A DNA stretch of 42,197 bases from Escherichia phage altidsur, in sequence record MN850568.1; one strand, given 5' to 3'. Below, piece by piece: positions 3,404 through 31,919 of the stretch (position 1 is the stretch's first letter; each line of letters begins with the position of its first letter). Under the pieces are notes generated by a model. The model saw only the letters and a list, made by a program, of their open reading frames with translations, was not told where the DNA came from and ran no database searches. The position numbers and the translations under genes are program-made.

Positions 3404-5775
3404 TGGCGAACAGCTATAACACCTACGTGGCGAACGGGACGCAGACTGCGTTCCTCGTCACCTTTGAGCAGCGCGTATTTACGCAGATTCAGGTGTACCT
3501 CAACTCCACACTCGTGACGGAAGGGTACACCTACAACTCTGTGACCAAACAGATTGTCTTCTCGACAGCACCTGTCGCCGGGACAATCGTACGCCTGCAA
3601 CGCTACACCTCTGAGACGCTGCTTAACAAGTTTGGTCAGGACGCTGCCTTCACGGGCAGCAACCTCGACGAGAACTTCGAGCAGATTCTGTTTAAGGCTG
3701 AGGAAACTCAGGAGGCATGGCTCGCGCCGCTCGACCGAGCAGTCCGTGTCCCGAACTCCGAAGTCTCCATCAACGCATTACCGAACGTCGCTGGCCGCCG
3801 TAACAAGGCATTGGGCTTTGACAACGCTGGTCAGCCGTTCATGATTCCTCTGGTTGATATTCCTGACTCAGCTCTGGCCATTGCGCTGGCGATGAATGAC
3901 GGCGGTAAGTGGATTGGCACCCTTGGCGGTGGTACGTTCCTCGACCGTCAGGACACTGTGTGTCTGTCAGAGTTCACCAACAACACTGGCTATGCGTCCA
4001 TCGCTGCCGCTGTGCAGGCATGTTTCGACTATGCCAAGGCAAACGGTAAGGTTGTGGATGCACGCGGCTGGGAAGGCACTGTGGACTCCACGGTGACAAT
4101 GGATGGTATTGAGGTCGTCGGCGGTACGTGGCACGGTAAGGCAGATATTCGACTGATTGACTCAACGTTCCGCAACTTCAAGGCATCCACTGTGCGTGTG
4201 GCGTACTGGGGTGGCAAGGTTCGCATTGCTGACTATGAGTTCACCAGTGCGCCGAGCAACTCCAAAGTTACGTCAATCCTGTTCCAAGGCAACATCGCCG
4301 GGGGCAGCTACGTAATCGAGAACGGTATCCACCGTAACGGCAAGTTCGGTATTCTGCAACAGGGTACTGGTGAGGCTATCACCAATGGCATTATCCGCAA
4401 CGTCGCTATGATGGACATGATGGGTGATGGCATTGAGATGAACGTAATCAACAAGCACTATGACGGTGGCCTGCTGATTGAGAACATCTACCTTGAGAAT
4501 ATCGACGGCACCAACGCACCTATTCCACTGTCCAACTGGGGCATCGGTATCGGTATCGCTGGTCAAGGCCCGTTCGGTTGGGACGCTGCTGAGACTCAGT
4601 ACGCGAAGAACGTGACCGTGCGTAACGTCCATGCTCCGCGCGGTGTACGTCAGGTTGTCCACTTCGAAGTTACCCGCGACAGCGTGTGCGAGAACGTGGT
4701 CTGTAACCCTGACCTGTCCGTGTCCACTGGTACTGGCCTGTCTGCTGCTGGCGTAATCACGTACGGCTGCAAACGCATGACCATTGATGGCGTGGTTGGT
4801 GAGCCTATCAACACAGGTGCAACCTCCCCTAACGATATTCGTCTCGTTATGCTGGAGTGGGGTGCTAACCAAGCAGGTGCTGGCGGTACGCCGGGTGCTG
4901 CGTGTCCATCTTTTGACATGACCGTGCGCAACGTGCAGACCCGCACCGGGCGCTTCTATGCAGGTGTCGGCTCCGACGACGATAACACCAACACGTACCA
5001 CCTTGAAAACATTCACTGTTACAAGATGACGCTGTTCGGTGTGGCTACTCTGCTGAACATGACCAACGTTACTGGTGTCGTATTCGACGCAGTTGGCGAT
5101 GACTCCAGCGGCGGTACTTCGTCCAACGGTGTGTACCCGCGTAAGAAGACGTGCCTTAACATGGTGAACGTGAACTTCTACGGGCCGGGTATGACCGAGG
5201 GTGCGCTGTACAGTAAGGCTCGGTACTCGGACATCAGTACGCTGAACTCCAACGTCCGTGCAATCCCGTACACCAACATCCAAGGTAACGTTGGCGCTAT
5301 CCTGTCTCCAGTGAACCGCATCCTGACGCTGCCAAACAACTTGGCAACGCTGACAGGTGCTGAGTTCCCGACTGGTAAAGAGTTCCCGGAAGGTACTGTC
5401 CTGCTGAAAACTGATGGTTCTGGTGGTAACTTCATCGTCACCCAGTTTGGTGCCTACATCCCTAATGATGGCAACAACTTCAAGGTGCGTGCTGCTGCCG
5501 CTGGCCAGACGTATCTGGAGCAGAACCTGACTCCGGCTGGTACTCAGGCATCCACCTCGTGGCTGTACCACAAACCAATCTCTGCTGGCACCCGGTTGAA
5601 CATCCCCGGCGCTGGGCCGAGTGGCGGTACACTGACTGTGACGGTGGTGCGTGCTCCATATCAGGTGGACAACAACATCGGGAACCCGGTGCGCATCGAC
5701 ATCACACCGCCGCTGGTGACTGCTATCCCTGCCGGGACGCAGCTCGCCGCGACTTATCCGGTGGCTTACATCTAA
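3403..5775 (+). CDS. Tail fiber/tailspike protein with T7 gp17-like N-terminal anchor and a beta-helix (depolymerase-like) body
   Basis: The first ~150 aa resemble the conserved N-terminal adaptor of T7-type tail fibers by eye; the rest is Gly/Asn/Thr/Val-rich with repeated G-x-hydrophobic strands typical of right-handed beta-helix spikes; position after the internal virion proteins. Confidence 0.75.
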   Translation: MANSYNTYVANGTQTAFLVTFEQRVFTQIQVYLNSTLVTEGYTYNSVTKQIVFSTAPVAGTIVRLQRYTSETLLNKFGQDAAFTGSNLDENFEQILFKAEETQEAWLAPLDRAVRVPNSEVSINALPNVAGRRNKALGFDNAGQPFMIPLVDIPDSALAIALAMNDGGKWIGTLGGGTFLDRQDTVCLSEFTNNTGYASIAAAVQACFDYAKANGKVVDARGWEGTVDSTVTMDGIEVVGGTWHGKADIRLIDSTFRNFKASTVRVAYWGGKVRIADYEFTSAPSNSKVTSILFQGNIAGGSYVIENGIHRNGKFGILQQGTGEAITNGIIRNVAMMDMMGDGIEMNVINKHYDGGLLIENIYLENIDGTNAPIPLSNWGIGIGIAGQGPFGWDAAETQYAKNVTVRNVHAPRGVRQVVHFEVTRDSVCENVVCNPDLSVSTGTGLSAAGVITYGCKRMTIDGVVGEPINTGATSPNDIRLVMLEWGANQAGAGGTPGAACPSFDMTVRNVQTRTGRFYAGVGSDDDNTNTYHLENIHCYKMTLFGVATLLNMTNVTGVVFDAVGDDSSGGTSSNGVYPRKKTCLNMVNVNFYGPGMTEGALYSKARYSDISTLNSNVRAIPYTNIQGNVGAILSPVNRILTLPNNLATLTGAEFPTGKEFPEGTVLLKTDGSGGNFIVTQFGAYIPNDGNNFKVRAAAAGQTYLEQNLTPAGTQASTSWLYHKPISAGTRLNIPGAGPSGGTLTVTVVRAPYQVDNNIGNPVRIDITPPLVTAIPAGTQLAATYPVAYI

Positions 5776-5784
5776 GGAGAAACC

Positions 5785-6090
5785 ATGGCATCCGTGAACA
5801 AGCAGCTCGACGGGCTGCACCGGATGCTGGTGGAGTATCTGTCCGACCGCTTGGCCGACGCTCGTAGGAAAGATGAACACGGTAATATCATCGAACCTAT
5901 GGCGGCGGCTGAGCTGTCCGTACTTCGCCAGTTCCTGAAAGACAACGGTATTCAGGCTGACAAAGACCACGCAGATGACCTGCTGGCGCTGCAAGAGCAA
6001 CTGAATAACGAAAAGACCGAGGCAGGTCGTAAGGATATTATGACCGCTGCCATTAACTCAATCGCAGAAGATAGTGGGATGATGCACTAA
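5785..6090 (+). CDS. Terminase small subunit (DNA maturase A-like), 101 aa
   Basis: Small ORF immediately upstream of and coupled to the large terminase, similar in size to T7 gp18; RBS-like GGAGA upstream. Confidence 0.55.
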   Translation: MASVNKQLDGLHRMLVEYLSDRLADARRKDEHGNIIEPMAAAELSVLRQFLKDNGIQADKDHADDLLALQEQLNNEKTEAGRKDIMTAAINSIAEDSGMMH

Positions 6091-7850
6091 TGGATTTACA
6101 ACGCCGCATGGTGATGGCAGGAATCGTTCGCGCCCACTACGAGAACAACTTCCCGCTGTTCCTGCATGACTACTTCGCATGGCTGGGCTTTGACCTCACT
6201 GAAATGCAGCTCGACATTGGCCGCTACATGGCCGACAGGACGCTCAAGAACAAGTGCGTCATGGCGCAGCGTGGTGAGGCTAAGTCCACCATCGGTATTG
6301 CCCGTGCTCTATACGAATTTGTGCAGATGCCAAACGCCACTGTGCTGCTGGTATCCGGTTCGGATGACTATGCTGGCACGCTCTCGCACGCTATTGTGTC
6401 TGCCATCATGCAATGGGACAGACTCGAATGGCTGCGCCCGGAGACTCGCGCTGGCGCACGTACGTCATACACTGACGGCTTCGACGTGCATCACGCGTTC
6501 CGTATCCCTGACAAACAGCCCTCTGTAAAAGCGGTCGGTATCTTCGGCCAGTTGCAGGGGAACCACGTATCGCTGTTGATTGCCGATGACGTGGAGACTA
6601 CCAGTAACGGTAGCTCTCCAGCCAACCGCGCCCGTATCAACACCCTGACCAAAGAGTTCGCGGCTATCGCCAACGATGGTGCAGAGATTCTGTACCTCGG
6701 CACTCCGCAGACTCAGGACTCCATCTATAACACGCTCCCGCAGCGTGGCTTCGACGTTCGTATCTGGCCCGGTCGTTTCCCTACGCCGGAAGAAGAAGAA
6801 CGGTACGGCGGCTGTCTTGCCCCGTGGATTAAGCAGAAGATGGAAGGCCACCCGGAACTGCGTACTGGCTACGGTATCCTTGGGAACCGTGGTGCTCAGA
6901 CTGACCCTCAGCGTTATTCTGAGGAGAAGCAGCTCCAGAACGAACGAGATTATCAGCAGGCAGGCTTCCAGTTGCAGTTCATGCTGGACACGTCGCTGTC
7001 TGATGCGCTCAAACAAACGTTACATCTCAGAGACTTAATCTTCTTCCACGGCTCTACGCAGTCTGCGCCGGAGGTTCTGCATTGGTCTAACCACCCGCGC
7101 CATGCCGCCGAGCTGCCACTGGATTTCCCACTTGCTCGCGCTCAGCTATTCTTGGCTGCTGACTTCTCGGACACGTATGTACCATTCGAAAATACCTCGG
7201 CGTTTCTTGACCCTGCTGGTGGTGGGTCGGACGAATCAGTTATCATCGCCACAGCTTCTGTCGGCCCGTTTATCCACGTCATTGGTATGCACGTCTACCA
7301 CGGCGGCCAGACGGAGGAGAACATCAAGGCGGCGGTAGAGTGGCTGTCTGAGGTCGGCGTTAAGCGGCTGGTCATTGAGGATAACATGGGCCACGGAACC
7401 GTGACCAACATGTACCGAGGTGAGATTAAGCGGCAGGGCTTGACCATTGGCTGCGAAGGCGTGTACTCGTCCGGCCAGAAAGAGGTGCGTATCATCAACC
7501 GCCTCGGCCCAATCATGCAGCGCCACCGTGTCGTTGTGCATTGGTGCGTTGTTGAAGAAGACCTGCGGCTGTGCCGGGGGATGAATAACGGTGGTCGCGA
7601 GTTCAGCCTGTTCTGGCAGCTCCAGAACCTGACACAAGACCGTCAATCAATCCCTCATGATGACCGTATTGAAACCCTATCTGCTGCCGTGTACCTGCAC
7701 GCTGAGGTGCTACAGCAGGACGAACATGAAGAAGCTGCCAAGCGCGAGACTGCTGCTGCACGAGAGTTCCTTGCCAACCCCATGGGTTACGACGACTCGA
7801 AGTGGCGCAGCCATAAGCCTGTGCGCGGCGTGCGACGGAGACTACGTTAA
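6090..7850 (+). CDS. Terminase large subunit (DNA maturase B), 586 aa
   Basis: Same length as T7 gp19 (586 aa); ATPase-like segment (LLVSGSDD...LLIADDVETT) followed by a nuclease-like C-terminal half; position after the tail fiber and small terminase. Confidence 0.85.
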   Translation: MDLQRRMVMAGIVRAHYENNFPLFLHDYFAWLGFDLTEMQLDIGRYMADRTLKNKCVMAQRGEAKSTIGIARALYEFVQMPNATVLLVSGSDDYAGTLSHAIVSAIMQWDRLEWLRPETRAGARTSYTDGFDVHHAFRIPDKQPSVKAVGIFGQLQGNHVSLLIADDVETTSNGSSPANRARINTLTKEFAAIANDGAEILYLGTPQTQDSIYNTLPQRGFDVRIWPGRFPTPEEEERYGGCLAPWIKQKMEGHPELRTGYGILGNRGAQTDPQRYSEEKQLQNERDYQQAGFQLQFMLDTSLSDALKQTLHLRDLIFFHGSTQSAPEVLHWSNHPRHAAELPLDFPLARAQLFLAADFSDTYVPFENTSAFLDPAGGGSDESVIIATASVGPFIHVIGMHVYHGGQTEENIKAAVEWLSEVGVKRLVIEDNMGHGTVTNMYRGEIKRQGLTIGCEGVYSSGQKEVRIINRLGPIMQRHRVVVHWCVVEEDLRLCRGMNNGGREFSLFWQLQNLTQDRQSIPHDDRIETLSAAVYLHAEVLQQDEHEEAAKRETAAAREFLANPMGYDDSKWRSHKPVRGVRRRLR

Positions 7851-8518
7851 TGTCCTTGATTACCATCACAGACCAACAGCGGTATGACATCGGCTACCGC
7901 GCCAACATTGCTGCGAACCTTACGCAGCGTTTCGTGAACAACACGACCACTATCACGGCAGCTCAGGCTGCTGACATCGACACGGCCATCCAGCAGCTCA
8001 TGACAGCGTTGGAAGCGGCTGGGTATAGTTCCGTACCGGAAGGCTCAGTAATCGTCGCAGACGGCGCTACAGCGACTGTAGTGAACCAAGACGGCACTGT
8101 GTCCAAGTCGGGTACGGTTGAGGTCGATGGCTCTACTTATCAGATTCGATTCCCGGTGACTGTCGGTATGAAGTCCAACGGTGACTCAATCTCTGTGCAG
8201 AACGTGAACGGTGCCGCTGGCATTACGTCCACTTCCTTCGTGAACACCAACGGCGTGCTGCTGGCAGCCCGGCTCCCGGCGACGGTGGCCTGTATCTCCA
8301 GCGGTAACGGTATCCAAATCCGCAACTCTGCGGGTACGGCTATCGCCAACGCCACGTTTACTGTGTCCAACGGGGTAATCTCGTACGGCACCTTCCCTGC
8401 AACTATCGCTGCTGTGGCTAACGCCGCTGCACTACAGGTTCCGGTGACTGGCACTTACACCGACACTGCAACCTTCACTGTCGCTGGTGGCGTTATCACT
8501 GGCATCACCCTCTCTTAA
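7850..8518 (+). CDS. Hypothetical Gly/Thr/Val-rich protein (possible virion-associated or receptor-binding accessory protein), 222 aa
   Basis: ORF coupled (TAATG) to the terminase stop; beta-strand-rich low-complexity composition; no recognisable catalytic motif. Confidence 0.5.
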   Translation: MSLITITDQQRYDIGYRANIAANLTQRFVNNTTTITAAQAADIDTAIQQLMTALEAAGYSSVPEGSVIVADGATATVVNQDGTVSKSGTVEVDGSTYQIRFPVTVGMKSNGDSISVQNVNGAAGITSTSFVNTNGVLLAARLPATVACISSGNGIQIRNSAGTAIANATFTVSNGVISYGTFPATIAAVANAAALQVPVTGTYTDTATFTVAGGVITGITLS

Positions 8519-8529
8519 GGAGAATCTTT

Positions 8530-8724
8530 ATGGCACTTGTTGACTCTACCGCTGCTGAACGTGCGGAGTTCGTGGCAGCCTGTAATATGGCAGCCAAGTA
8601 TCTGAACGTTTGGACGGAAGACTACTTCTTCGACACCACCAACACCGAGCTGGTTGCTTACTATCAGACGTTCGTGACCCGTGTACAAACGGCGCTCACC
8701 AACCTCACTAACGGCGGCGCATAA
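8530..8724 (+). CDS. Hypothetical protein, 64 aa
   Basis: Short ORF with GGAGA RBS in the gap between flanking genes, same strand and tight spacing. Confidence 0.4.
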   Translation: MALVDSTAAERAEFVAACNMAAKYLNVWTEDYFFDTTNTELVAYYQTFVTRVQTALTNLTNGGA

Positions 8725-8734
8725 GGAGTAGAGT

Positions 8735-9223
8735 ATGAAACTGTCTCGGCTAATGGCCGGGGCAGTCCTCTCATTGTCACTGACATTGACGGGCTGCTCC
8801 GCAACTAGCGCACTGTCTGCTGTAACTTCGGCTGTCTCTCCCAACAAGCCGGAACTCACGGCGCAAGTCGGTGCAGAGAATACGAAGCAAGGTATCGGTG
8901 TGACTGCGAAACAGTCCGACGAAACAAAGGTCGGTGACGTATCAGGTAACGCGAAAGTGGATACCGCTAAGCAGGGTTCGAATGGCACTTCCGTCAAGGA
9001 CGTTACAGGAGGCTCTGTAAACGCTTCTAAGCAGGGGTCGCAAATGACCCAAGGAAACGTACAGGCTCGCACAGTAATCGTCTCACAGAGCGACCCACGC
9101 AGTCTCCTGTGGGCTTTCGGCATGGGCCTTACATGTATCCTTGGTTTAGTCATGTGGTTTGTACCATCTCCGTGGAAAAGGAAAGTGAAAGATGACGGAA
9201 GCAAAGAAGGAGCCAACTCCTAA
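8735..9223 (+). CDS. Lipoprotein with C-terminal transmembrane helix; unimolecular spanin (u-spanin) candidate
   Basis: N-terminal signal peptide ending in a lipobox (LTLTGC), Thr/Ser/Gly/Lys-rich extended middle, C-terminal hydrophobic helix (LLWAFGMGLTCILGLVMWFVP) followed by a charged tail; located directly upstream of the endolysin. Confidence 0.55.
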   Translation: MKLSRLMAGAVLSLSLTLTGCSATSALSAVTSAVSPNKPELTAQVGAENTKQGIGVTAKQSDETKVGDVSGNAKVDTAKQGSNGTSVKDVTGGSVNASKQGSQMTQGNVQARTVIVSQSDPRSLLWAFGMGLTCILGLVMWFVPSPWKRKVKDDGSKEGANS

Positions 9224-9575
9224 CATCCACTCGCGTATGGGTGCAGTGGAGGCTCGTATGCAATCCGTAGAACTTCGACTCGACAAGCACGAGGTACAAA
9301 TCGCCACCCTTGAAAAAGGCGACGCTGCAATGCTGGCCAAGCTCGCGGAGAACGATACCCGCTGGCAGACCGTTCAACAGCAGCTCCTTGTGGTTGAGCA
9401 AATTCAGGACATTCAGAAGACTATGAGCCATATCGGTAAGCTGTTTACGGCGGCGGCTCACGCTGTCAAATGGTGTCTCTTAACCGCATCCCTGTGTAGC
9501 GGTATCTACTTAGCGATTAAGGCTGGCGACCTCACGGCTCTCCAGTCCTTTATCACAACGATTATGGGGATGTAA
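9192..9575 (+). CDS. Lysis-cassette membrane protein with N-terminal coiled coil and single C-terminal TM helix (holin/antiholin/spanin-like candidate)
   Basis: ORF between the lipoprotein and the endolysin; heptad-like N-terminus, one hydrophobic helix (WCLLTASLCSGIYLAI); TAATG coupling to the endolysin start. An alternative start at 9237 would avoid overlap with the upstream gene. Confidence 0.5.
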   Translation: MTEAKKEPTPNIHSRMGAVEARMQSVELRLDKHEVQIATLEKGDAAMLAKLAENDTRWQTVQQQLLVVEQIQDIQKTMSHIGKLFTAAAHAVKWCLLTASLCSGIYLAIKAGDLTALQSFITTIMGM

Positions 9576-10111
9576 TGACTAACTTTGAAATCTGTATGCG
9601 GTTCACCGGGCTGGCAGAAGGCGGTTACGCCAACCTGCCCGGAGACACCGGAGGGGAAACGAATCATGGAATTAGTGACGCTCGTGATGGAAAGCTGGAT
9701 GGTAGAGCTTGCGGTGTCCCTACTGGGCTTGGCGGCACTATTTGTGTGCCTATCCGCAACCTCACCAAAGCGCAAGCCGAAGCAATCTATCGACGGGACT
9801 ACTACAGCCCCATCCGAGGTGACGAGCTTCACCCTGCGATTGCATGTGCCGTGTTCGACTACGGCGTTAACTCAGGTGTCTCCCGTGCGGCGAAAGCTCT
9901 ACAGCGGGTATGCGGCGTTGCACAAGACGGGGTTATTGGCCCTGCTACCGTGGCAGCAGCCAAACGTCTGGAACCTCACTCCGCAGCAGCAGCCATCTGT
10001 GACCTTCGTATTGCGTTCCTAAAGGCTTCTACAGCCCCGACAATCGTTCGGTATAGGGATGCCTTGGTAGCTCGTGCAAAACGCTGTAGCGACTACTGTG
10101 CGACGCTGTAG
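9575..10111 (+). CDS. Endolysin, GH108-type muramidase with C-terminal peptidoglycan-binding-like region, 178 aa
   Basis: N-terminal motif LAEGGYANLPGDTGGETNHGIS and downstream IYRRDYY match the GH108 signature (EGG...DPGG.T..GI...YxxDYW) read by eye; no N-terminal TM/SAR segment. Confidence 0.8.
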   Translation: MTNFEICMRFTGLAEGGYANLPGDTGGETNHGISDARDGKLDGRACGVPTGLGGTICVPIRNLTKAQAEAIYRRDYYSPIRGDELHPAIACAVFDYGVNSGVSRAAKALQRVCGVAQDGVIGPATVAAAKRLEPHSAAAAICDLRIAFLKASTAPTIVRYRDALVARAKRCSDYCATL

Positions 10112-10320
10112 GGGCTATCGAAAGCTGGAGCATTGAACAGGCCGTGGGGAGCAATACCCCCGGCTTGAAAATTGCATGTTTATAGTTGCCCCTCCCTCGA
10201 CCCAAATGACCGCGCGTACCCCCATGACGTGTGCGCGGATTAGCCTCGCGACGTGCGCGATATTGCCTCGCGTGTGCTGCGCGGCGCGTCAAGAGGATTG
10301 CCTGCGTGCGGTATAGCTCG

Positions 10321-10710
10321 TGCGTGTCGCGTTTCACTATCGCCGCGCGGTGCTGTCCTGCTGGCTGGCTGTGTGCCTGCTGTGTGGGCTATCGGTGGCG
10401 GTGTGGTGCTGTCCTATTGGGGACGCTCTGCGCTGGCTGCGTGGTGCTGCTGGCTGCGCGTGGTCGGTCGGGTATCTGTCTCTTTTCGTCGTGGTGTGTG
10501 GTGCTGGTGTGTAGCGGTGTGCGGCGTGGTGCTGCCGTCCTGCTGTGTGGTGTGCTGGTCTACTGTCTGCGCCTGCCAGCTCTGCGCGTCATGCTCTGCT
10601 ACTGTCTCTTACTGTCCTACTGCCTTCACTGTCTGCCGTCTGTCAGTCCTACGGTCTGCCATCCGTCATCCGTTCGGCGCTCGCTTGTTTCGGCTGCGCC
10701 GCGCTCGCTC
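10321..10710. other. A-depleted (G/T/C-only) strand-asymmetric tract; candidate genome-terminus / terminal-repeat-associated region
   Basis: By manual count roughly twenty A residues in ~390 nt on the + strand. Because every stop codon contains A, all three + frames stay open, which produces the overlapping Cys/Arg-rich ORFs in the track. Sits between the last late gene and the early promoters. Confidence 0.6.
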
Positions 10711-10730
10711 TGCGTATCTAGCGATACTAT

Positions 10731-10752
10731 ATCACTATAGACACTTTCATAA
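10731..10752 (-). promoter_or_regulatory. Copy of the 22-bp phage promoter-like motif ATGAAAGTGTCTATAGTGATAT, inverted; + strand reads ATATCACTATAGACACTTTCAT
   Basis: Reverse complement is identical over 22 bp to 31211-31232; contains the CTATAG core reminiscent of the CACTATAG core of T7/SP6-type promoters. Confidence 0.45.
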
Positions 10753-10757
10753 TTATC

Positions 10758-10856
10758 TAATGATTACAGTAACTTATAACCTATCTGATAACGGTATTCT
10801 ATCCAGTGTTATGATTATCTAATCAAACTTTAATCCTAATGATTACAGTAACTTAT
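10758..10856. repeat. AT-rich direct repeats (20-bp TAATGATTACAGTAACTTAT at 10758-10777 and 10837-10856, plus duplicated ATTATCTAA)
   Basis: Exact 20-bp duplication 79 bp apart, read directly, immediately downstream of the A-depleted tract and the inverted promoter-like motif. Confidence 0.6.
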
Positions 10857-10877
10857 CACTTTTCTTGAAAATAATAC

Positions 10878-10907
10878 TTGCCAATCTGTTTTGGTTTATG
10901 CTGTAAT
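10878..10907 (+). promoter_or_regulatory. Host sigma70-type promoter candidate (TTGCCA-N18-TGTAAT)
   Basis: -35-like TTGCCA at 10878-10883 and the same TATGCTGTAAT -10 box as the next two promoters. Confidence 0.35.
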
Positions 10908-10984
10908 TCATCTCGCCGGACAACACAGCGTTAACGTGTTGGACGGTGTAGGACGGTAACACTGCTCTTTAACAATCTGGTGTG

Positions 10985-11013
10985 TTGACAAGGCAAGCTC
11001 ACTATGCTGTAAT
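10985..11013 (+). promoter_or_regulatory. Host sigma70-type early promoter (TTGACA-N17-TGTAAT)
   Basis: Perfect -35 TTGACA at 10985-10990, 17-nt spacer, TATGCTGTAAT box; one of three identically spaced copies upstream of the early region. Confidence 0.55.
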
Positions 11014-11121
11014 GCTTCCACGTCAGCCAGCAAGCTAAACAGTCATTGATAAAGACGTTAAAACACACGTAGGCAAGCTGGTACGGTTTAACTATCTCAG
11101 AACGGGCGCTGATTAAATCGG

Positions 11122-11150
11122 TTGACAGGATGAAATGAGTATGCTGTAAT
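11122..11150 (+). promoter_or_regulatory. Host sigma70-type early promoter (TTGACA-N17-TGTAAT)
   Basis: TTGACA at 11122-11127, 17-nt spacer, TATGCTGTAAT box at 11140-11150. Confidence 0.55.
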
Positions 11151-11201
11151 GCACACCAGATTGACAGGGCAGCAAGCCAGTCAGTCAGAAGTAAAAAGTA
11201 G

Positions 11202-11230
11202 TTGACACGCTGAATACGATGTGATGTAAT
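11202..11230 (+). promoter_or_regulatory. Host sigma70-type early promoter (TTGACA-N17-TGTAAT)
   Basis: TTGACA at 11202-11207, 17-nt spacer, GATGTAAT box at 11223-11230. Confidence 0.5.
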
Positions 11231-11687
11231 CAGCACCGAGTTGAAAGGTTGCAAAACAACCTGCTCTGAGTGAACGTAAACTGGCCACGTAGTGTCACGG
11301 TCTCATGGGTATCCGGCGCAGCTAGGAACTGGTGAGAGGCATCGCTGAAAAGCAACGGTATTGCAACAATGCTAACGCCGTAGGGGTAGTGCCTGATGCA
11401 AGGGAACGGAGAAGCGCGATAGACACAGCGCAGTATCAGTAAAATCCCAAACGTCTTATAAGGCGCGGAGTGAAGCGGGTAGGTAGGCAAGCTGGTAACG
11501 GTGAGCCGGACTGCTGGAGGACTCCTGAGAGTGGATGCAGACAATATCCACGGCGCGAAATGGGCGGGGCGATTTTTCAGGGTAGTGAATCCGACAAGCC
11601 AATCAATGCCACTTAGTGCAACATGTACGGCGCGTCACAATGGGTTCACTATCCACCTGAAAATAGCCAACAACTGGAGAAATAACT

Positions 11688-12080
11688 ATGTACCGTATCT
11701 ATGCAAGCGCATATCGTCAGGGCAACGCTGAATGTGTTAATCTGGCGCTTCATTGCAAGGCACTGCGAACGGTGCAGGATATGTTCGGAGTGGTTCCGGT
11801 CACACTGACAGGCAAGTTCGACAATGCGTACGAGTTAAGCATGGTCTTTCCTGTCGATGGAATCTACGAAATCAGGCAGGCTGTTAAGCTGTTCTGTAAA
11901 GCATTCGAACAGGACTGCATCATGGTAGTGACCAAAGATGATGATGCAATCTTCATGGATTCACCATATCCGGGCAAGCCTGCTGGCAAGTTCGTCAGCA
12001 AGACTGAGGCCGAAATGGAAGCCGGGCAGCACACCGCTTGGACTTACGATGGTGAACAATTTTGGGTAGTGGAGGCGTAA
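11688..12080 (+). CDS. Early hypothetical protein, 130 aa
   Basis: First ORF after the ~450-nt leader; GGAGA RBS 8 nt upstream of the ATG. Confidence 0.55.
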   Translation: MYRIYASAYRQGNAECVNLALHCKALRTVQDMFGVVPVTLTGKFDNAYELSMVFPVDGIYEIRQAVKLFCKAFEQDCIMVVTKDDDAIFMDSPYPGKPAGKFVSKTEAEMEAGQHTAWTYDGEQFWVVEA

Positions 12081-17222: not shown

Positions 17223-17426
17223 ATGTTCCGAGTTATATTGTTGTTCCTGTTCCTCGTTATTATTTGGGGAGCTTTATGGATGGCGCTGGCAGTGTTCGCA
17301 CTGATACCAGCCATCGGTGAGTCGGCTACTTCTTCGGTGGGTACGCTGCTCGGTATGCTGGTAGGCTGGGGCTTGATGCACGTAAGCCTGAGCGTAGGTC
17401 AGAGCCGGAGGTGGATTAGATGGTAA
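17223..17426 (+). CDS. Small membrane protein (two predicted TM helices), 67 aa
   Basis: Hydrophobic segments LLFLFLVIIWGALWMALAVFALI and LLGMLVGWGLMHV; downstream of a promoter-like motif. Confidence 0.5.
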   Translation: MFRVILLFLFLVIIWGALWMALAVFALIPAIGESATSSVGTLLGMLVGWGLMHVSLSVGQSRRWIRW

Positions 17427-27680: not shown

Positions 27681-28257
27681 ACGTGGTGACAAGTTCTGTC
27701 TGGATATTAACCGCGACTACCAAAGCCCACGGCTCAACGCTATGCGGGACAACGGCATCATCCTGACGTACGATGAACCCTATGATGTACCTAATGACAG
27801 CAGGGATTATTACACCTACGTTTGGGACGGCAGGACGGAACATCTGGTACTGGAGCCTTATGAGGTACAGCCAGTCCAGACTGCGTTCATTGAGAACGAC
27901 CCATATGACCCGGCCTCTGATGTTGAGGTGGCCGTGGCCATTGGTCAGGGTGTTGGTGGGCCGGGCGGTATGAAGTTCGACGGCGGCAAACCGCGCATGG
28001 CCCTGCTGTTCGACGGTTGCCCGAATGCACTGGAGGCTGTAGCCAGCGTGCTAACCTTCGGTGCTCAGAAGTACGCAGCTCACTCGTGGCAGACCGTACC
28101 GGAAGGTGAGGAACGCTACAAGTCAGCGCTGCTTCGTCACCTGACCGCAGTGGGTAAGGGTGAGGAGACTGACCCGGAATCCAATCTGCACCATCTGGCG
28201 CACGCTGCTTGCAATGCGCTGTTCATTCTGGAACTTGCTTTAAGGAAAACGAAATGA
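27673..28257 (+). CDS. Conserved phage protein resembling dATP/dGTP pyrophosphohydrolase-type nucleotide hydrolase domains, ~194 aa
   Basis: Segment KFDGGKPRMALL...FGAQKYAAHSWQ...RYKSALLRHL...ESNLHHLAHAACNALFILE; family assignment from memory only. ATG overlaps the upstream stop (ATGAGTAA). Confidence 0.5.
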   Translation: MSKRGDKFCLDINRDYQSPRLNAMRDNGIILTYDEPYDVPNDSRDYYTYVWDGRTEHLVLEPYEVQPVQTAFIENDPYDPASDVEVAVAIGQGVGGPGGMKFDGGKPRMALLFDGCPNALEAVASVLTFGAQKYAAHSWQTVPEGEERYKSALLRHLTAVGKGEETDPESNLHHLAHAACNALFILELALRKTK

Positions 28258-28433
28258 GTGCTTTACTTTATGTGATTGCTTTGTTCTGGTTCGTGTACTT
28301 TACACTGGCCACCCTCAGCGCGTGCAAGTCTTATAACTTGACGCACTACCCGACACGGGCTGGCTCTGCTGGTTTCGTTGTGTGGGTACTGTTGGCTGTA
28401 CTGCCAACTTGGTTCATCTGCTATCTGGCGTAG
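28254..28433 (+). CDS. Small two-TM membrane protein (holin-like topology), 59 aa
   Basis: ATGA-coupled internal ATG of track ORF 28209..28433; hydrophobic helices LLYVIALFWFVYFTLATL and FVVWVLLAVLPTWFICYLA. Confidence 0.5.
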   Translation: MSALLYVIALFWFVYFTLATLSACKSYNLTHYPTRAGSAGFVVWVLLAVLPTWFICYLA

Positions 28434-31497: not shown

Positions 31498-31519
31498 TTA
31501 TGAAAGTGTCTACTATGGG
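31498..31519 (+). promoter_or_regulatory. Phage promoter-like motif copy (TTATGAAAGTGTCTACTATGGG)
   Basis: First 13 core positions identical to the 31211-31232 motif; overlaps the first ATG of the next ORF. Confidence 0.35.
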
Positions 31520-31919
31520 AAATACATCACACACGACAATGCCACTCGACATTCGCCGTGCTGTGGCCGAGGGCATTCAAGCTGAGCGGCCATGGTCTGA
31601 CTTATCTCCCGATGTGATTGTTGACAGCATGTACGAGGCCACCGCCTCCGGTTGTGTTGACGTTTACATCACTGACGATGACGACAGCCTCATGGCCGTT
31701 GCACACATCGGCAGGTTATTCGATATTCATGTGGGCGAGATGGTGGTCGTTATGGCCTCATACGTCTGGCCCCCGTACAGAAACCGTGGAGTGATGCGTG
31801 CCATCCTCCGTGTACTCAAAGACGTGGCCCGTTCAGAGGGTGTACGTTGGTGCGGTTACTCCCATATGGTGCGGCCTTACGTTCAGGAGTACCGCTTCAT
31901 TGATTTGGAGAAACCGTAA
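31515..31919 (+). CDS. Hypothetical protein, possibly GNAT-like acetyltransferase, ~134 aa
   Basis: Motif YRNRGVMRAILRVL resembles GNAT motif A; start placed at the second ATG because the first (31500) lies inside the promoter-like motif. Confidence 0.45.
   Translation: MGNTSHTTMPLDIRRAVAEGIQAERPWSDLSPDVIVDSMYEATASGCVDVYITDDDDSLMAVAHIGRLFDIHVGEMVVVMASYVWPPYRNRGVMRAILRVLKDVARSEGVRWCGYSHMVRPYVQEYRFIDLEKP

Follow-up and report, generated by a model that had tools for sequence, protein, structure and literature searches.

A coiled-coil membrane protein as candidate holin in the lysis cassette of Escherichia phage altidsur

How does a soluble muramidase reach the cell wall when none of the annotated genes of a phage encodes a holin? 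This question is raised by the lysis genes of Escherichia phage altidsur (MN850568), one of the bonnellviruses from Danish wastewater. Its complete, circularly permuted phiKMV-like podophage genome of 42,197 bp is the window analyzed here, and the phage belongs to the genus Bonnellvirus; region 7800–10400 is 98% identical to Escherichia phage aldrigsur of the same genus. At 8735–10111 three open reading frames (ORFs), here called genes A, B and C, encode a lipoprotein with a C-terminal transmembrane domain (TMD), a coiled-coil protein with a C-terminal TMD and a soluble muramidase of the GH108 family (Table 1). Holins time phage lysis, and of all lysis components they are the ones most frequently overlooked by annotation pipelines. 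A holin annotation is absent from the records of the related phages LF82-23, J8-65 and LIMEzero, and in the paper on Kc261 the endolysin alone was recognized among the lysis genes. Positions 8735–10111 are best explained as the entire late lysis cassette of a Bonnellvirus, arranged as spanin, holin and endolysin, and we propose that B is probably the holin or an essential component of it.

The peculiarity of this gene arrangement has been noted before. The spanins of J8-65 and LIMEzero were classed in the T1 gp11 family of unimolecular spanins (u-spanins), where they were described as unusually long and as the only members outside a cassette with a pinholin and an endolysin of the signal-anchor-release (SAR) type (Kongari et al., 2018). 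The oddity that a first-pass annotation of this DNA, made from the sequence alone, had pointed out is therefore real but not new, as both the u-spanin and its unusual pairing were already published.

Gene B and its link to signal-less endolysins

The three ORFs lie where the first-pass annotation had placed them and have the architecture that it described. They are genuine genes and not chance ORFs, since all three are kept in about 20 phage records and in LIMEzero and since the ratio of non-synonymous to synonymous substitution rates (dN/dS) of B is 0.055–0.08 within the genus, at dS values of 0.3–1.1. These values point to a functional gene B under strong purifying selection.

Gene C is predicted to encode an ordinary GH108 endolysin. 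The protein matches Pfam family PF05838 (Glyco_hydro_108) with 79.7 bits (cut-off 21.2, E 2.3e-22) and aligns from residue 13 with the solved GH108 structures PDB 7dnp, 2is5 and 2ikb (E 1e-23 to 3e-17). Its motif LAEGGYANLPGDTGGETNHGI aligns with the same motif (EGGY) of 7dnp, the Glu of which is catalytic in GH108 enzymes. The match to PG_binding_3 scored 23.0 bits, slightly under the cut-off of 24.6, and the same region of 7dnp was aligned. Apart from this slightly sub-threshold part no notable difference from other GH108 proteins was seen, and C is by sequence a clear member of the GH108 endolysins and muramidases (N4 gp61 type; PDB 7dnp, 2is5 and 2ikb; TtsA-like 6v3z and 6v40). A tblastn search gave GH108 relatives of C in 539 phage records, of which the nearest beyond Bonnellvirus and LIMEzero (36–46% identity) belong to phages of Rhizobium, Sulfitobacter, Bordetella, Brucella and others. 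Neither the hydrophobicity scan nor the structure alignment revealed a signal, twin-arginine (Tat) or SAR sequence on C. An N-terminal TMD is likewise lacking, as the top 19-residue window has a Kyte–Doolittle hydropathy (KD) below 1.2 and is internal. The first-pass annotation had stated that the endolysin has no N-terminal membrane segment, and this holds: the catalytic domain begins at about residue 13 and no hydrophobic N-terminus precedes it.

The main new evidence on B comes from its wider family. A word-indexed protein search with B returned close relatives only (at least 69% identity), and the LIMEzero homologue is 53% identical. A profile search of 1.84 billion cluster representatives added seven more full-length relatives (P0035–P0040 and P0044), with E-values of 8e-14 to 2e-7 and 20–30% identity. 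In these distant relatives the N-terminal motif (Y/H)R(R/K)xGxxE is followed by a coiled coil and a hydrophobic core, after which comes an invariant basic-x-G-D. Reciprocal tblastn of P0035 and P0037 against 50,697 phage records matched only the B genes of Bonnellvirus and LIMEzero, and a related-locus search with the B sub-alignment A5 returned a single locus. The next gene after the B homologue encodes a PF00959 (GH24) lysozyme in all six Logan/JGI lineages that reach it and in one IMG/VR contig. This lysozyme gene starts 0–31 nt past the B homologue or overlaps its stop codon, and none of the encoded lysozymes has a hydrophobic N-terminus (e.g., MVVSEKGKLLLMKLEDLRLFPY and MYKVDLKALQALLEKREGKV). 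At two of the distant loci a T1-type u-spanin gene overlaps the start of the B homologue, and no spanin lies near the B homologue at the others. What stays constant is thus the linkage of the B family to signal-less endolysins, which belong to two unrelated enzyme families, whether or not a u-spanin gene lies upstream. In altidsur, too, B adjoins the endolysin gene, with a 1-nt overlap with C, and the same adjacency was found in all related loci that reach the next gene. Such linkage to signal-less endolysins is the classical genomic signature of a holin.

The cassettes of phiKMV-like relatives provide a second line of evidence. phiKMV itself encodes a pinholin, a SAR endolysin and Rz/Rz1; here the first-pass annotation agrees with the published account. 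The closest u-spanins outside Bonnellvirus and LIMEzero are those of Pectobacterium phage CB5 (54% identity) and of KP34-like Klebsiella phages (34%), and for KP34-like viruses the order spanin–holin–endolysin has been published. In both, the spanin gene is followed by a gene for a single-TMD holin of 83–89 amino acids and then by one for a GH24 SAR endolysin. The altidsur cassette resembles those of the KP34-like phages (Drulisvirus) and of CB5 (Phimunavirus) in its place after the large terminase subunit gene and two small genes, in its gene order and in its homologous u-spanin, but it has a 127-residue coiled-coil B and a signal-less GH108 enzyme where these phages have the small pinholin and a SAR GH24 enzyme. 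The endolysins of CB5 and the KP34-like phages start with MSLKNKIIGALFGVTALGGGITAVV and have an evident SAR N-terminus (MSLKNKIIGALFGVTALGGG...), in contrast to C, and no similarity of B or C to this holin–endolysin pair was found. These comparisons show that the spanin was retained while the holin–endolysin pair differs as a unit between Bonnellvirus/LIMEzero and CB5/KP34-like phages. Co-replacement of the pair is expected if B is the cognate release factor of C, since a pinholin is unable to release a soluble endolysin.

Other candidates for a holin were sought by scanning all + strand ORFs of at least 25 amino acids for hydrophobic windows and then for conservation in LF82-23, J8-65 and LIMEzero. 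Barring alternative-frame shadows of large conserved genes, A and B were the only membrane proteins conserved in altidsur and these three phages. No TMD-containing ORF besides A and B was found in 7800–10200 or beside the B homologues, and no ORFs with a lipobox or TMD are embedded in B.

Protein B (QHR65276.1, ‘altidsur_9’, an exact sequence match) belongs to PHROG 35530, a group of unknown function, and is labelled ‘hypothetical protein’ in every inspected record that carries the gene (19 of Bonnellvirus, plus LIMEzero). From a 10-sequence alignment, AlphaFold2 predicts a helix over residues 12–110, a break at G112–D113 and a short helix over residues 114–126, with a mean predicted local distance difference test (pLDDT) score of 83.5; a heptad pattern covers residues 17–72. 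The C-terminal hydrophobic segment AVKWCLLTASLCSGIYLAI is weakly to moderately hydrophobic (KD 1.58), which is above the three TMDs of lambda S in the same crude scan (1.1–1.5). In 13 of 13 aligned family members the uncharged core is exactly 16 residues long and has a basic residue on either side, with a net charge of +2 to +3 in the N-terminal flank and of 0 to −2 in the C-terminal tail. By the positive-inside rule, uniformly over these 13 members, B is predicted to be tail-anchored with its N-terminus inside and its C-terminus outside (N-in, C-out). At 127 or 105 amino acids and with this 16-residue core, B has the small size and at least one TMD that are looked for in a holin. We rejected B as an i-spanin-like protein or as host gene of an embedded o-spanin: no forward frame of B or its homologues contains a lipobox ORF, and the positive-inside rule and the missing signal peptide speak against a periplasmic coiled coil.

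Table 1. Features of the lysis cassette of phage altidsur, with coordinates in the window.
Feature	Coordinates	Strand	Basis
Gene A, u-spanin of the T1 gp11 family, 162 aa	8735–9223	+	ORF, PHROG 1804, T1 gp11 homology
Lipoprotein signal peptide of A, with lipobox LTGC (Cys21) at its end	8735–8797	+	Read from sequence
C-terminal transmembrane helix of A, residues 124–143, followed by basic tail KRKVK	9104–9163	+	KD 2.0, approximate insertion free energy −1.2
Gene B, coiled-coil, tail-anchored membrane protein, proposed holin/endolysin-release factor, 127 aa	9192–9575	+	ORF, dN/dS, AlphaFold2, genomic association
Possible second start of B: internal GGAGG Shine-Dalgarno, 5-nt spacer, ATG of Met23 (ATG 9258), giving a 105-aa form	9248–9260	+	Sequence
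Uncharged hydrophobic core of B, residues 94–109, WCLLTASLCSGIYLAI, flanked by K93 and K110, then invariant GD	9471–9518	+	Hydrophobicity, family alignment
Gene C, soluble GH108 N-acetylmuramidase endolysin, 178 aa, 18.7 kDa, last gene before genome end	9575–10111	+	Pfam, PDB
GH108 catalytic domain of C, residues 13–101, including AEGGY motif	9611–9877	+	Pfam and PDB alignment
PG_binding_3-like region of C, residues 105–150	9887–10024	+	23.0 bits, cut-off 24.6; 7dnp alignment

Proposed role of B and competing explanations

We consider B a holin candidate because of the conserved gene order in which the holin–endolysin pair differs as a unit, because it is the sole conserved membrane protein besides A, because it is under purifying selection and because of its linkage to soluble endolysins. 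Further support comes from the predicted N-in, C-out topology, from a hydrophobicity at or above that of the lambda S TMDs, from its translational coupling to the neighbouring genes and from the precedent of XhlA and gp24.1. The first-pass annotation had called the cassette one with no obvious holin and found the export of the muramidase unexplained by any annotated gene. Both statements are correct for the annotation but not for the biology, since B sits in the holin slot of the spanin–holin–endolysin order and is the evident candidate for release of C. Its further remark that B fits no standard holin class is right insofar as no holin family matches, but the design has a precedent in XhlA and gp24.1 and the topology is formally that of class III.

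As a holin, B would be made late, possibly from both Met1 and Met23, and would insert in the inner membrane as a tail-anchored protein with its N-terminal coiled coil of about 90 residues in the cytoplasm. The 16-residue core would span the membrane and the 17-residue tail would be periplasmic. B would then accumulate and oligomerize via its coiled coil until, at a critical level, it permeabilizes the membrane enough for the folded 18.7-kDa muramidase to reach the cell wall, after which the u-spanin A would disrupt the outer membrane. The sequences show the gene structures and homologies, the missing export signal on C, the synteny with its differing holin–endolysin pair, the selection on B and the link of its family to soluble endolysins; the topology of B, its oligomerization, hole formation, timing and sufficiency on its own are what we infer. 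In a stronger version, which we put forward tentatively and would not yet favour, B represents a stand-alone class of Gram-negative holins in which the coiled coil drives assembly and the unusually short 16-residue core, with basic residues on both sides, opens lesions for folded endolysins without a multi-TMD partner, possibly self-regulated by the 127- and 105-residue starts. B would then amount to an XhlA equivalent of Gram-negative phages that acts by itself.

The closest architectural analogues of B are XhlA of PBSX and gp24.1 of SPP1, lysis-essential holin components of Gram-positive phages. The N-terminal part of these small proteins is hydrophilic, their only TMD is C-terminal, and they cooperate with an adjacent two-TMD holin of the XhlB or gp26 type. 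B shares with them the cytoplasmic coiled coil followed by a C-terminal TMD and the location in the lysis cassette, but it is longer, belongs to a phage whose host is Gram-negative and has no two-TMD neighbour. With class III holins of the T4 T type it has in common a single TMD, the predicted N-in, C-out topology and a soluble endolysin. In T4 T the cytoplasmic N-terminus is short and the periplasmic domain large. The proportions are reversed in B, with a large coiled coil predicted in the cytoplasm and a tail of 17 residues in the periplasm, and there is no sequence similarity. The releasin gp25 of phage Mu (DUF2730) is a membrane-tethered cytoplasmic protein needed for endolysin release. 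B resembles it in being helical, cytoplasmic and tethered to the membrane and in having its gene near that of the endolysin, in a phage without recognizable holin, but the TMD of gp25 is N-terminal (N-out, C-in), at the opposite end of the protein, and its demonstrated role is the release of a SAR endolysin.

Several observations weigh against B as the holin. It has no match among the holin families of Pfam, PHROGs and NCBIfam. Its uncharged core is just 16 residues long and weakly hydrophobic, and fell under the KD cut-off of 1.6 in the first scan. The tail KAGDLTALQSFITTIMGM has a net charge of 0 and is partly hydrophobic, so that the highly charged C-terminal tail typical of holins is absent. 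XhlA and gp24.1, the nearest precedents, need a two-TMD holin and never act alone, and a possible partner exists in the genome: a two-TMD ORF of 67 amino acids at 17223–17426, present in 19 of 19 Bonnellvirus records. Lastly, the contigs that carry the distant B relatives are partial, and a distal holin in those genomes is possible.

The need of XhlA and gp24.1 for a two-TMD partner and the presence of such an ORF in the genome support the main rival explanation, in which B is only accessory or regulatory, either XhlA-like or antiholin-like, and the hole is formed by a distal small multi-TMD protein, encoded at 17223–17426 and in some genomes also at 28209–28433. Weak Pfam matches to XhlA in 10 of the 13 B-family members add to this explanation, although B itself was rejected as a member of that family (PF10779), as the scores were 14–19 bits against a cut-off of 34.7, covered the coiled coil only and stood among those of many coiled-coil families. 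The product of the 67-residue ORF contains two hydrophobic segments, and its C-terminus is basic (..GQSRRWIRW); it may act as a partner of the holin, in superinfection exclusion or in some other role. However, this ORF belongs to the early/middle region, where it stands just upstream of the primase region, and it diverges fast (38–100% identity, compared with 83–98% for B). No family matches it, and LIMEzero, in which the same pair of B and GH108 genes is found, lacks it. The ORF at 28209–28433 (74 amino acids from a TTG start, 59 from ATG) also encodes two TMDs. It is found between a gene annotated as putative phosphodiesterase in relatives and a Q-like gene, shortly ahead of the one for RNA polymerase. 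About half of the genus has it, which makes it an accessory membrane gene, and we rejected it as the general holin of the cassette, since LF82-23, J8-65, Lidtsur, smaasur and LIMEzero lack it. Moreover, none of eight lineages examined has a TMD partner beside B. A merely accessory B therefore seems unlikely to us.

The resemblance to Mu gp25 suggests another explanation, namely that B is a releasin-like, membrane-tethered cytoplasmic factor that forms no classical holes, and that the phage is holin-less in the sense of Mu. DUF2730 genes do also occur with endolysins that have no SAR domain, where their function is unknown, and two B-family members gave faint DUF2730 matches. Yet the demonstrated releasin mechanism concerns SAR endolysins that the Sec system has already exported, whereas C has no SAR sequence and must cross the membrane folded. 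Membership of B in DUF2730 (PF10805) was rejected: two of the 13 members gave matches, which at 14 bits fell far short of the threshold of 24.9 and covered the coiled coil only, and the TMD of B is C-terminal. We consider a releasin-like role quite improbable. Hardly any credence can be given to the idea that B is unrelated to lysis (serving, e.g., morphogenesis or exclusion) and that C reaches the wall because the host exports it, because it leaks out or via a holin in another reading frame. The absence of a holin-family match would fit such a role, and a +1-frame ORF within the endolysin gene (9585–10022) does contain a hydrophobic stretch. This ORF was rejected as a hidden holin, since its start region is interrupted by a stop codon in J8-65, and LIMEzero has stop codons in frame and a stretch that is not hydrophobic. 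Several findings speak against a role outside lysis: no embedded lipoprotein or TMD ORF was found, C carries no signal, Tat or SAR sequence, and a B-family gene directly precedes the endolysin gene in every lineage examined, with two endolysin families.

As a holin, B would stand for a new candidate family of holins among coliphages able to grow on K-12, of moderate interest but nothing categorically new. It would close the sole exception in the survey of T1-type u-spanins and give annotators a new family with a recognizable signature, i.e., a coiled coil, a 16-residue core and basic-x-G-D, encoded directly 5′ of a signal-less endolysin. It would also offer a tractable E. coli K-12 system for the question how a short C-terminal helix on a cytoplasmic coiled coil opens the membrane, which applies equally to XhlA/gp24.1 and to those DUF2730 proteins that accompany soluble endolysins. 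Should B require a partner, it would provide the first description of a two-component holin in the style of XhlA from a Gram-negative phage.

Translation of B and the u-spanin gene

B is translationally coupled to both of its neighbours, overlapping A by 32 nt and sharing its last nucleotide with C in the sequence TAATG. Met1 (ATG 9192) is preceded by AAGGAA 9 nt upstream. The internal GGAGG..Met23 arrangement is invariant in 7 Bonnellvirus sequences and has the form AGGAGG..ATG in LIMEzero, where the arrangements at Met1 and Met23 are both kept. The 105-residue form is the one annotated in J8-65 and in two Enterobacter records. The long form of 127 residues is probably translated, since residues 11–22 are conserved at the protein level between genera and nucleotide changes within the genus, few in number, affect third codon positions. 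Codons 11–22 (9222–9257) are nearly invariant in nucleotide sequence over the genus, with no synonymous change between altidsur and J8-65, compared with a dS of about 1.2 over the next 60 codons, in the adjoining coiled coil. The GGAGG ahead of ATG 9258 falls within this block, which suggests an extra constraint at the RNA level around the internal start. SPP1 gp24.1 has an internal in-frame start with its own ribosome-binding site, and by analogy the 127/105-residue pair may be reminiscent of gp24.1/gp24.1* and of dual-start holins.

Gene A is a true homologue of the T1 gp11 u-spanin gene. The two proteins are 35% identical (E 4e-16) with an invariant TAQVGAENTKQ motif, and A matches PHROG 1804 ‘Rz-like spanin’ with an E-value of 1.4e-36. 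The first-pass annotation had recognized the design of T1 gp11 and named the lipobox and the C-terminal anchor as features to be checked; both are present, and the likeness in design extends to homology. The signal sequence MKLSRLMAGAVLSLSLTLTG-C21 ends in the lipobox L-T-G-C, and A is the sole lipobox ORF in all forward frames of 7800–10200. Its C-terminal TMD LLWAFGMGLTCILGLVMWF is strongly hydrophobic, and AAGGAG serves as ribosome-binding site. The mature periplasmic segment (residues 22–123) contains no Cys, in agreement with the criterion for u-spanins (Kongari et al., 2018). A is thus like the T1 gp11 family in its lipobox and Cys, its C-terminal TMD, its lack of periplasmic cysteine and its place in a lysis cassette, and unlike it in its length and in being partnered with a soluble endolysin instead of a pinholin and a SAR endolysin. 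The extra length of A-type spanins is due to an inserted repeat of about 21 amino acids (DVSGNAKVDTAKQG..TVK) in the periplasmic domain, in A at residues ~66–88 (8930–9000). T1, KP34-like phages and CB5 have no copy of this repeat, Bonnellvirus has one and LIMEzero two, so that the copy number varies within this domain, which has to bridge the periplasm. Another spanin of this type was found on the metagenomic contig L013 (1170–1673), where an uncalled u-spanin gene with the unusual lipobox L-W-G-C overlaps the B homologue by 83 nt; it is a further case of a spanin overlooked by gene callers.

Sequences around the cassette and elsewhere in the genome

All genes of altidsur lie on the + strand. 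The large terminase subunit gene (6090–7850) is followed by small conserved ORFs at 7850–8518 and 8530–8724 and then by the lysis cassette, which is the final coding block ahead of the genome end; in J8-65 the terminal repeat begins 73 nt past the homologous endolysin gene. The small ORFs between the terminase and lysis genes are conserved over distant phiKMV/T7-like lineages, with counterparts on contigs L014 (3796–3990), L021 (163–459) and L026 (5673–5966). The 222-residue protein encoded between the terminase and lysis genes carries a C-terminal motif, TFTV(A/T)(A/G)G(A/V)IT(A/G)I(A/T)LS, that also ends proteins of 97–98 residues encoded immediately upstream of B homologues. The small ORFs gave only a weak match to PHROG 10405 ‘virion structural protein’.

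A scan of 5700–11800 for sigma-70 promoters and terminators gave fewer sites than in shuffled controls. Directly after the last gene, the sequence at 10230–10720 is depleted of A, consisting nearly entirely of G, T and C with degenerate direct repeats of the GTGCTG type, and the AT skew of 10001–11000 is −0.28. This stretch is probably the genome-end or terminal-repeat zone. ORFs with many apparent transmembrane segments at 10231–10822 were rejected as spurious, since they lie in this non-coding A-depleted region and are not conserved in J8-65 or LIMEzero. Further downstream the motif TATGCTGTAAT occurs three times (10897–10912, 10984–11015 and 11121–11152), two of the copies being preceded by GTTGACA at sigma-70 promoter spacing. 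These sites are likely early promoters for the host RNA polymerase, and in LIMEzero three host promoters are annotated at the equivalent position. At the start of the late region, a 139-residue ORF (31500–31919) matches GNAT acetyltransferases in Pfam with an E-value of 7.9e-05, as well as PHROG 2746 ‘host range and adsorption protein’.

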